Notes under the pieces: generated by a model
The model's database searches: none
What the model saw: only the letters and a program-made list of their open reading frames with translations
What the model was told of the DNA's origin: nothing
Shown: in pieces, positions 41,316 through 44,130 of the stretch
Layout: every line of letters begins with the position of its first letter
Position numbering within the stretch: position 1 is the stretch's first letter
Position numbers and translations under genes: made by a program
Source: a virus
Taxonomy: Duplodnaviria > Caudoviricetes
IMG/VR virus record: IMGVR_UViG_3300032007_000055
Location: 26,044-90,043 of that record
Strand: one strand, 5' to 3'
DNA length: 64,000 nucleotides

Positions 41316-41483
41316 AATAGGCCTCCTTTGTTATGAGTCACAATATTTACATCGCGGCTCTTTTTCATATTGGTATGTATTACTTGTTTTTAAGTTTTAC
41401 ACACCTCATTATTATAATATATAACTAAAAAAAATATGGGCGTCCGAAGACGCTCCATATTTTTTTATTTTTTGTGCATCAAG

Positions 41484-42020: not shown

Positions 42021-42038
42021 ATTTTTTTCTGAAAAAGA

Positions 42039-42222
42039 TACCGGGACGGCAAGGTCTATAAACCGCCCCGGTAATGTTGGTGTCTAACCCGTTAGACCCA
42101 TGCTATGTATCAATGCCGTCGTTCTCGACACCTTCCTAAGGGACTGTTCATCAATACATAGACCTGCGTTTCCACTCTCCTTGTTTCATGGGACGAGAGC
42201 AATCACGAACTTGCGTAGCAGG
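42039..42222 (-). ncRNA. candidate multi-domain structured RNA
   Basis: consecutive helices CCTGC/GCAGG, CTATGTAT/ATACATAG, GTCTAAC/GTTAGAC, TACCGGG/CCCGGTA with no spare spacers. Confidence 0.55.
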
Positions 42223-42232
42223 AATATTTTCG

Positions 42233-42367
42233 CGTGTTTACCAGGAATTGAACCTAGATCTTATAACCAAACACTTGCGCTATGTCGAACGATACTTTGG
42301 AACTCGGAGGACCAGATAAATTTCGTTCATTGGTTTGGTTTTGCTCTGCCATTTGAGCTATAAACAC
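42233..42367 (-). ncRNA. tRNA-like RNA with ~60-nt insert in the anticodon arm
   Basis: acceptor GTGTTTA/TAAACAC, D arm GCTC AAATGGCA GAGC, T arm CTAGG TTCAATT CCTGG; 85 nt between D and T arms instead of about 23. Confidence 0.8.
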
Positions 42368-42372
42368 AAGTA

Positions 42373-42457
42373 TGCTGAAGACGGGACTTGAACCCGTATG
42401 CTATTTACTAGCCAAGGATTTTAAGTCCTTTGCGTGTTCCAATTTCGCCACTTCAGC
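42373..42457 (-). tRNA. tRNA-Leu(TAA), CCA not encoded
   Basis: GCTGAAG acceptor, AAGGA CT TAA AA TCCTT anticodon arm, long variable arm, ACGGG TTCAAGT CCCGT T arm, A73. Confidence 0.95.
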
Positions 42458-42652
42458 AAAAATAAAGACCCCACACACCTGGCATAGACGGCCGTTACGG
42501 AGGGCGGCTAAAGGCTACACGAGATGTGTGGGAAAAACGAGAAAGAACAGCGCGTATGATGTGTGCATTTACAGTTATGGAATATCGATACTCTTTTTTT
42601 AGTTTGAGGAGTGAAGAGCATCACCCATAAATGTACACCACTGTTCCAGTAT

Positions 42653-42664
42653 TATAATATATAA
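42653..42664 (-). promoter_or_regulatory. putative early promoter (TTATATATTATA) of the RNA cassette
   Basis: consensus copy pointing into the ORF-free 41.9-42.6 kb region. Confidence 0.7.
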
Positions 42665-44035: not shown

Positions 44036-44130
44036 AGTCCCACCTCACTATTATAATATATAAATAAAGGTTTAAATTTACTAACTTAAAATAATTCACT
44101 AGGAATAGAATCCTAGTGAATTTTTATTAA

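Follow-up and report, generated by a model that had tools for sequence, protein, structure and literature searches.

The DNA analysed here, referred to as the window, is a stretch of 64,000 nucleotides corresponding to bases 26044-90043 of a 90-kb IMG/VR virus record, whose completeness is put at 32% by CheckV. ARAGORN and a scan at the Rfam gathering thresholds, both used at default, detected two tRNA genes in the window, at 42372-42458 and 37581-37652. Both missed a third tRNA-shaped gene, 135 nt long and located on the minus strand (42367->42233), which is found by Rfam models only with laxer filters and is reported by ARAGORN only when introns are allowed. The Rfam tRNA model RF00005 matches this gene over model positions 1-71 with 38.7 bits, against a gathering score of 29; the alignment places the acceptor, D and T arms, and a local insertion of 77 nt replaces the anticodon arm.

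The genome encodes the beta subunit of a split multisubunit RNA polymerase (phrog_3015, E = 4e-47), whose best phage matches are 22-27% identical and belong to AR9/PBS1-like and phiKZ-like jumbo phages; a weak match to PhuZ/tubulin was also found. The window belongs to an uncultured jumbo phage, one whose RNA polymerase is split and which encodes a PhuZ-like tubulin. Two contigs, of 247 and 282 kb, encode nearly identical neighbouring proteins, and their lengths agree with a genome size of about 280 kb.

The tRNA-like gene is part of an ORF-free unit headed by a copy of the 15-nt motif TTAYATATTATRWTA. The motif occurs 20 times in the window, where 0.28 copies are expected, and 19 of the copies lie on the minus, i.e. 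coding, strand. Copies are intergenic, as those at 41410-41424, 44049-44063 and 20377-20391 (all on the minus strand) and the one reported in Table 1. The motif is likely a phage promoter. Within the unit, a leader precedes a tRNA-Leu gene; 4-5 nt further on comes the tRNA-like gene and, after another spacer, of about 10 nt, a structured RNA of about 190 nt, which ends in a terminator-like hairpin and a U run (42039-42051). This last RNA matches no Rfam family, and compensatory changes are seen at five of its base pairs, among others in L002, a relative with about 50% protein identity. Like the tRNA-like gene, the tRNA-Leu gene does not encode its CCA end.

Table 1. Features of the ORF-free unit containing the tRNA-like gene, listed in the direction of the minus strand. 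Positions refer to the window.
Feature	Position	Strand	Basis
Promoter-like motif TTATATATTATAATA, head of the ORF-free tRNA/ncRNA unit	42650..42664	-	copy of an over-represented motif
tRNA-Leu(UAA), canonical class II, 4-5 nt upstream of the tRNA-like gene	42372..42458	-	called by ARAGORN; Rfam match of 58.4 bits
Acceptor stem, 5' strand GTGTTTA	42361..42367	-	Rfam alignment; invariant in 6 variants
D arm GCTC-AAATGGCA-GAGC (A14, A15, G18, G19, A21)	42343..42358	-	Rfam alignment; invariant in 6 variants
Long stem, 5' strand AACCAAAC, anticodon stem continuing without a loop	42333..42340	-	MFE fold, all variants
Hairpin A, with invariant 6-bp base GAACGA/UCGUUC	42287..42328	-	folds and alignment of variants
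Hairpin B, GC-GCAA-GU, GNRA-capped mini-hairpin	42273..42280	-	MFE fold
Long stem, 3' strand GTTTGGTT	42265..42272	-	MFE fold; invariant
T arm CTAGG-TTCAATT-CCTGG	42241..42257	-	Rfam alignment; position 57 is A or G among variants
Acceptor stem, 3' strand TAAACAC, and discriminator G; CCA not encoded	42233..42240	-	Rfam alignment and sequence
Downstream structured ncRNA	42036..42232	-	conserved to L002 (L002:57-250), preceded there by tRNA-Gln

A preliminary description of the gene had reported intact acceptor, D and T arms, with an A15-U48 pair, G18G19 and TTCAA, and every one of these details is found in the sequence, the V region ending in U48. As far as the body is concerned, the gene has the features of a canonical tRNA: an acceptor stem, a D arm with G18G19, a T arm with TTCRA and a score above the gathering level. 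What is missing is an anticodon stem of 5 bp whose 7-nt loop contains U33 and has a purine as nucleotide 37. The D-arm 19-mer ATAGCTCAAATGGCAGAGC occurs in bacterial tRNAs for Thr, Met, Trp, Lys, Gly and Asn, and the ancestral isotype is therefore not assignable; GTDB genomes contain no tRNA of normal length with the same acceptor stem.

The same searches brought up other unusual tRNA-related loci. The 19-mer ATAGCTCAAATGGCAGAGC is found in L023 (750-940) and at about 35 other Nostoc loci, which start like a tRNA and continue with a long insertion, and for which ARAGORN makes no call within extracts of 201 nt. At a cyanobacterial locus (L067:2091-2228) the Rfam tRNA match spans 138 nt, while a Chryseosolibacter contig (L043:309-367) contains Rfam tRNA matches of 59 nt, shorter than a normal tRNA, which on direct reading appear to be devoid of the anticodon arm.

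The MFE fold of the 135-nt gene has an energy of -32.3 kcal/mol (z = -2.78), not reached by any of 200 shuffled sequences. The cloverleaf is kept and the anticodon stem is continued by 8 bp, AACCAAAC/GUUUGGUU, which open into a three-way junction. Its two branches are a long hairpin on a GAACGA/UCGUUC base (hairpin A) and the mini-hairpin GC-GCAA-GU (hairpin B); the branched arm as a whole comprises 76 bases. Above its base, hairpin A has an A/U-rich 5' side and an apex, both of which vary, and a CCUCCGAGUUCCAAAG block that is conserved. The fold thus includes both the extended stem AACCAAAC/GTTTGGTT and the inner GAACGA/TCGTTC helix described earlier. Since the anticodon stem runs into the three-way junction, the RNA has no anticodon loop and would be unable to read a codon.

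Relatives of the locus were collected from ENA/Logan assemblies by exact-protein look-ups, using homologues of three neighbouring genes. Six distinct variants of the tRNA-like gene were obtained, namely those of the window, L005 (identical to L006), L010 (identical to L011), L008 (identical to L018 and L019), L014 and L021. Scans of IMG/VR at the DNA level, with the exact 5' half of the gene or with a pattern joining D arm and T arm over a gap of 70-100 nt, returned nothing. Similarly, protein scans of IMG/VR and JGI, based on the 407-aa neighbour, on the RNA polymerase beta subunit and on an alignment of 5 sequences, revealed no relatives, and cultured phage relatives show no DNA similarity to the gene.

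The architecture is common to all six variants, whose folds have z values between -2.6 and -3.1. When the acceptor, D, T and long stems, the base of hairpin A and hairpin B are evaluated in the alignment, 192 of 192 base-pair cells are paired; as a control, the 3' partner was slid by 1-3 columns, and only 31-41% of the cells pair. Five extra pair types are observed, all of them one-sided and all preserving the pairing, with no breaks, in what are six shallow variants. In the long stem an A-U pair is replaced by G-U and a C-G pair by U-G; in L008 and L014 the G-U pair of hairpin B is a G-C; and the T-stem pair 50:64 is found as U-G, C-G or U-A. As to covariation of the insert, proposed beforehand as a check, the one-sided changes preserve the pairs and none breaks a helix, but in none of the six variants, all from one shallow clade, do both bases of a pair differ from those of its commonest form. 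Covariation support for the structure is weak for this reason, and at this depth a shuffle control of the pairing is uninformative.

The surroundings of the gene differ among strains. The tRNA-Leu(UAA) allele of the window is only 77-83% identical to those of L005, L006, L010, L011 and L021, within flanks 94-99% identical; the differences concentrate in the D arm, the anticodon stem and the variable arm. This looks like allele replacement, perhaps by co-conversion with a mobile intron. In L008 (around 517-1208), as in L018 and L019, the anticodon loop of tRNA-Leu(UAA) is split by a group I intron containing an HNH_3 endonuclease ORF, while the gene is uninterrupted in the other strains. In L010 (743-816), L011 (748-821) and L014 (2230-2303) a tRNA-Met(CAT) gene separates the ncRNA from the structured element that comes next; the window, L005/L006, L008 and L021 do not have it, so that the array shows a presence/absence polymorphism. 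In addition, an extra element of 97 nt (alignment columns 205-301) separates leader and tRNA-Leu in L005, L006, L008, L010 and L011, and is absent in the window, L014 and L021.

One possible account of the gene is a tRNA with an intron. All single-segment deletions were enumerated, allowing 0-2 nt at position 26 and a V loop of 4-7 nt. In none of the resulting products is a stem of 4 bp or more combined with Y32, U33 and R37, in agreement with the earlier statement that no single segment can be removed to recover a Y32-U33-NNN-R37 loop. With introns allowed, ARAGORN predicts a tRNA-Asn(GTT) with a 63-nt intron at 31/32. The spliced product, the best of those obtained by single deletions, would carry the loop C-U-GUU-U-G, with U37 and G38, would lack nucleotide 26 and would contain an A.A mismatch in the stem. 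The predicted isotype varies by strain between Asn GTT, called in four variants, Asp ATC and Trp CCA, and the sole candidate for U33 is a C in L008 and L014, a change which turns a G-U pair of hairpin B into G-C.

Known routes of intron removal were searched for as well. Bulge-helix-bulge (BHB) motifs, in which a 4-bp helix at the borders of exon and intron lies between two bulges of 3 nt, gave 1, 1 and 0 weak hits in three variants, compared to 2.2 in shuffled sequences, and none of the hits is conserved or placed at a usable border. The group I core model RF00028 does not match the gene at E <= 10, and the insert is only 63 nt long; as a positive control, the same tool detects RF00028 with 55.9 bits in the tRNA-Leu of L008, to whose group I intron the insert shows no similarity by blastn-short. 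The motif search and the Rfam models therefore bear out the initial reading that neither a BHB nor a group I core is present. Hammerhead, twister, twister-sister, pistol, hatchet and HDV-like ribozymes gave no Rfam match at E <= 10 either, and the junction strands CAAU and GACAUA, read directly, are devoid of a hammerhead core. Alleles free of the insert were found neither in IMG/VR nor in GTDB genomes nor in the related contigs. Genes for EndA (PF01974), RtcB (PF01139) or Rnl2-type ligases (PF09414) are absent from the 90-kb record, which covers 32% of the genome.

With no canonical loop recoverable and neither BHB nor group I core, the gene does not look like an intron-containing tRNA of any known kind, in line with the preliminary description. 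A tRNA-Asn GUU whose 63-nt intron is removed by an undescribed route, involving neither a group I core nor a BHB, is considered improbable. This reading would account for the ARAGORN call shared by four variants, and conserved putative exons around a fast-evolving insert form the classic pattern of an intron. The discriminator G73 fits the identity rules for Asn. The same phage clade also contains a mobile group I intron in tRNA-Leu. Phage tRNAs with introns are on record, and a route of this kind has been proposed for the tRNAs of Lak megaphages (PMC6784885). Against an intron stand the defects of the spliced product, the lack of conservation of the candidate U33, the inconsistency of the calls between strains, the missing ribozyme matches and intron-less alleles and, as a weak argument at this coverage of the genome, the missing processing enzymes.

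The rate of change was evaluated separately for the different parts of the gene, by counting minimal substitution events on ungapped columns. The tRNA body accumulated 3 events over 59 sites (0.051 per site) and the arm 15 over 72 (0.208 per site), about four times the rate of the body. In the next gene, 30 events over 126 third codon positions (0.238 per site; P = 0.0005 versus the body) give a rate close to that of the arm. The flanks, which are themselves probably functional RNA and diverge by at most about 14% among the variants, show 131 events over 954 sites (0.137 per site; P = 0.04 versus the body, 0.07 by Fisher test). While 8 events would be expected in the body at the flank rate and 14 at the third-codon rate, the three observed ones all fit the tRNA structure. 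Gap columns are distributed accordingly: 11 of 12 fall in unpaired parts of the arm, one in the unpaired connector between D stem and arm, and none in helices. Loops, junction strands and apex of the arm change at a near-neutral rate, but its helical frame is kept.

These comparisons indicate that the tRNA body is under purifying selection, so that the gene is not a decaying pseudogene, and the arm, whose helical frame is kept, is not junk. An insert made of unconserved junk in a decaying pseudogene had been named beforehand as the finding that would overturn the initial interpretation; it is contradicted by the three events in 59 body sites and by the fact that all changes within helices pair. 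A related possibility is that a tRNA gene was disabled recently by an insertion in its anticodon loop and is too young to have decayed. The distribution of the gene, confined to a shallow clade, would suit such an origin: in L002, L003 and L004, with about 50% protein identity, tRNA-Gln and/or tRNA-Met occupy the corresponding place and the tRNA-like gene is absent, which makes the gene either young or dispensable. The poor conservation of the insert and the flux of the tRNA arrays, in which Leu alleles are swapped, tRNA-Met is present in some strains only and a group I intron has been gained, point in the same direction. The low number of body events, compared to either expectation, and the absence of any indel or substitution breaking a helix of body or arm in the six variants make this explanation quite improbable. 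In addition, the gene persists where its neighbours were exchanged: it differs by one or two bases in L005, L006, L010 and L011, whose tRNA-Leu allele is only 77% identical, and its body is identical in strains where the adjacent tRNA-Leu is the allele 77-83% identical.

The preliminary description also mentioned a second tRNA with a disabled anticodon in the window. Such a gene does exist, at 37581-37652 on the minus strand: it forms a full cloverleaf (Rfam, 55 bits) with a TTCCCC-GAAA-GGGGAA arm, and ARAGORN assigns to it an 'anticodon' of two bases. It stands alone, with a promoter motif of its own (37670-37684, minus strand) and a U run after it, is identical in L005 and is absent in L002 and L003.

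The arm of the 135-nt gene had been interpreted as a cargo and the cargo as the functional element. This part of the interpretation is not supported, since the arm evolves at about the rate of third codon positions, contains nearly all the indel columns and has an apex that is refolded among strains. The part under constraint is the tRNA body together with the helical frame of the arm. A natural tRNA scaffold with an active cargo, for example a CCUCC loop pairing with Shine-Dalgarno sequences or a GNRA hairpin docking on another RNA, is accordingly given a low probability. In its favour, the six variants have in common the block CCUCCGA(A)GUUCCAAAG as well as the hairpin GC-GCAA-GY, and a GNRA loop, GAAA, also caps the arm of the other anticodon-less tRNA. 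However, CCUCC is not kept free: it is predicted to be unpaired in the window and to pair with inserted G runs in L008, L014 and L021, the apical part of the arm folding differently among strains.

Targets and further copies of the cargo were also looked for. In the 90-kb record, the longest matches to an antisense target or to a second copy are 11-12 nt long, at chance level, and provide neither an extended complementary target nor a second copy for a scaffold with active cargo. A mobile mini-element and an antisense regulator were rejected, as no second copy and no complementarity longer than 12 nt occur in that record. No other occurrence of the cargo was detected in IMG/VR, searched with a 17-mer, or in JGI metagenomes, searched with a 21-base pattern; the hits were chance ones only, antisense of ribosome binding site (RBS)/start regions or of coding sequence. 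The 17-mer, TCCTCCGAGTTCCAAAG, matches RBS/start regions in two unrelated viral contigs (L012:6348-6364 and L013:2537-2553) exactly, in antisense; these matches are attributed to chance and yet show an anti-Shine-Dalgarno character of the loop, which would suit an active cargo.

A different role is suggested by the position of the gene. The downstream ncRNA is always directly preceded by a tRNA or a tRNA-like gene, at the same spacing of about 10 nt (AAAATATTCCTGC): the tRNA-like gene in the clade of the window, tRNA-Gln in L002 and L004. The gene might therefore be a processing, or punctuation, element, in which cuts of the early transcript by RNase P and RNase Z define the ncRNA 5' end and, for tRNA-Leu, its 3' side, and the excised RNA has no job. 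RNase P, RNase Z and the CCA-adding enzyme recognise the acceptor/T-arm and the elbow rather than the anticodon arm, and a constrained body with a free arm would fit this recognition; the ncRNA, moreover, is older and more widely conserved than the tRNA-like gene. Nevertheless punctuation is judged unlikely, because the tRNA-Leu located 4-5 nt upstream could provide the same cuts were the gene deleted, the helices of the arm are retained instead of being lost, and the second anticodon-less tRNA, which stands alone, is not punctuation.

In the reading we prefer, which has about an even chance of being correct, the product of the gene is a tRNA mimic that does not decode; it would be released from an early phage transcript containing tRNA and ncRNA and act through its body. 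Transcription from the phage promoter would produce an ORF-free RNA containing leader, tRNA-Leu, tRNA-like RNA and structured ncRNA. Host RNase P and RNase Z would excise the mimic by recognising acceptor stem, D/T elbow and discriminator, and the CCA-adding enzyme would complete its 3' end, as for the adjacent tRNA-Leu. The product, with an anticodon stem that enters a three-way junction, would be unable to read a codon, and its tRNA-shaped body would occupy or titrate a factor that recognises the shape of tRNAs and not the anticodon. Candidate targets are an enzyme that processes tRNAs or modifies their ends, or a host defence protein. The arm would mainly close the anticodon end with a stable, yet evolvable, structure. 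An intron-bearing tRNA, too, would be expected to combine a conserved body and a variable insert.

More speculatively, the clade may keep its two anticodon-less tRNA genes as body decoys, soaking up a host factor directed at the shape or at the 3' ends of tRNAs, for example a toxin used in defence or an enzyme of tRNA processing; the arm, which changes fast, would then be the side of the molecule engaged in an arms race. This version is unlikely but, if true, would define a new class of phage counter-defence RNA. In the literature searched on phage pseudo-tRNAs, tRNA mimics and natural scaffolds, no such gene is described.

Phage tRNA genes are usually taken to assist codon usage or to replace tRNAs that host defences have cut. 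An RNA which is conserved in phages and resembles a tRNA in everything except decoding would direct attention to other uses of the tRNA shape, as a decoy, a processing handle or a stable carrier. Two such genes are found in one genome, and anticodon-less tRNA genes may form an overlooked class. The mimic reading predicts that the 135-nt RNA is full-length, CCA-tailed, uncharged and unspliced, a prediction tractable in principle.

Several known systems share part of these features. The likeness to tRNA scaffolds noted in the preliminary description holds for the architecture: in the engineered scaffolds of Ponchon and Dardel (follow-up paper PMC3753655) the acceptor, D and T arms are likewise kept, the anticodon stem is prolonged and a foreign structured RNA closes it, in a design that relies on processing by the host tRNA enzymes and on the stability of the tRNA fold. 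It is a likeness of shape, which does not speak for a function of the cargo; the phage gene, unlike the engineered ones, is natural, and its arm is the fastest-evolving part. The gene would nonetheless be a natural proof that this design is tolerated in vivo. Similarly, mascRNA/menRNA (RF01684) and the punctuation by mitochondrial tRNAs provide examples of a tRNA-shaped cut site for RNase P and RNase Z beside a longer ncRNA. These systems are eukaryotic and the likeness is one of mechanism only; RF01684 matches the T-arm half of the tRNA-like gene with 16.7 bits, against a gathering score of 42.5.

Among non-decoding RNAs, YrlA has a permuted topology: the stem that binds Ro60 is formed by the 5' and 3' ends of the RNA, and the acceptor-like stem is closed. 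The ends of the phage RNA, in contrast, form an open acceptor stem. YrlA (RF02553) also has a tRNA-like D/T elbow, with a long helix in the place of the anticodon stem, and can be cleaved by RNase P (PMC4201824). That the phage RNA is itself a tRNA-shaped Y RNA, with the arm as docking site for a Ro60/Rsr protein, is very improbable indeed. The CUGGUCC...CCGA sequence of the arm loosely recalls the GGUCCGA strand contacted by Ro60, which in Y RNAs binds a long stem (PMC4201824), and Ro60 genes accompanied by a tRNA-like partner occur in some jumbo phages (PMC7824862). However, GGUCCGA is interrupted by UCC in the phage RNA, the motif GNCGAAN0-1G (PMC4201824) is absent on direct reading, and the region gains G and C insertions between strains. 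Furthermore, a stretch of 151 nt gave no match to the Y_RNA or YrlA models of Rfam at E <= 10, and no gene with a TROVE domain is present in the 90-kb record, i.e. in 32% of the genome.

The closest published cases are the tRNA introns of Lak megaphages and the species 1 and 2 RNAs of phage T4. The latter (rnaC and rnaD) are small, stable RNAs encoded in the phage tRNA cluster and processed together with the tRNAs; neither is known to be a full cloverleaf with an insert. Unexplained for 50 years, they may be the first members of the class suggested here. The 'enigmatic' introns of Lak phages (PMC6784885) likewise reside in oversized tRNA genes of very large gut phages, as inserts of 60-90 nt in the anticodon region which are neither group I introns nor associated with a BHB. 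For Tyr GTA, an example in Supplementary Table S6 of that paper, the anticodon (bases 33-35) comes before the insert (intron 37-129), and the paper placed excision points by comparing alleles with and without the insert. The gene described here differs from those accounts: a canonical loop is not obtained by any single excision, the collections searched contained no allele free of the insert, and the candidate U33 is not conserved.
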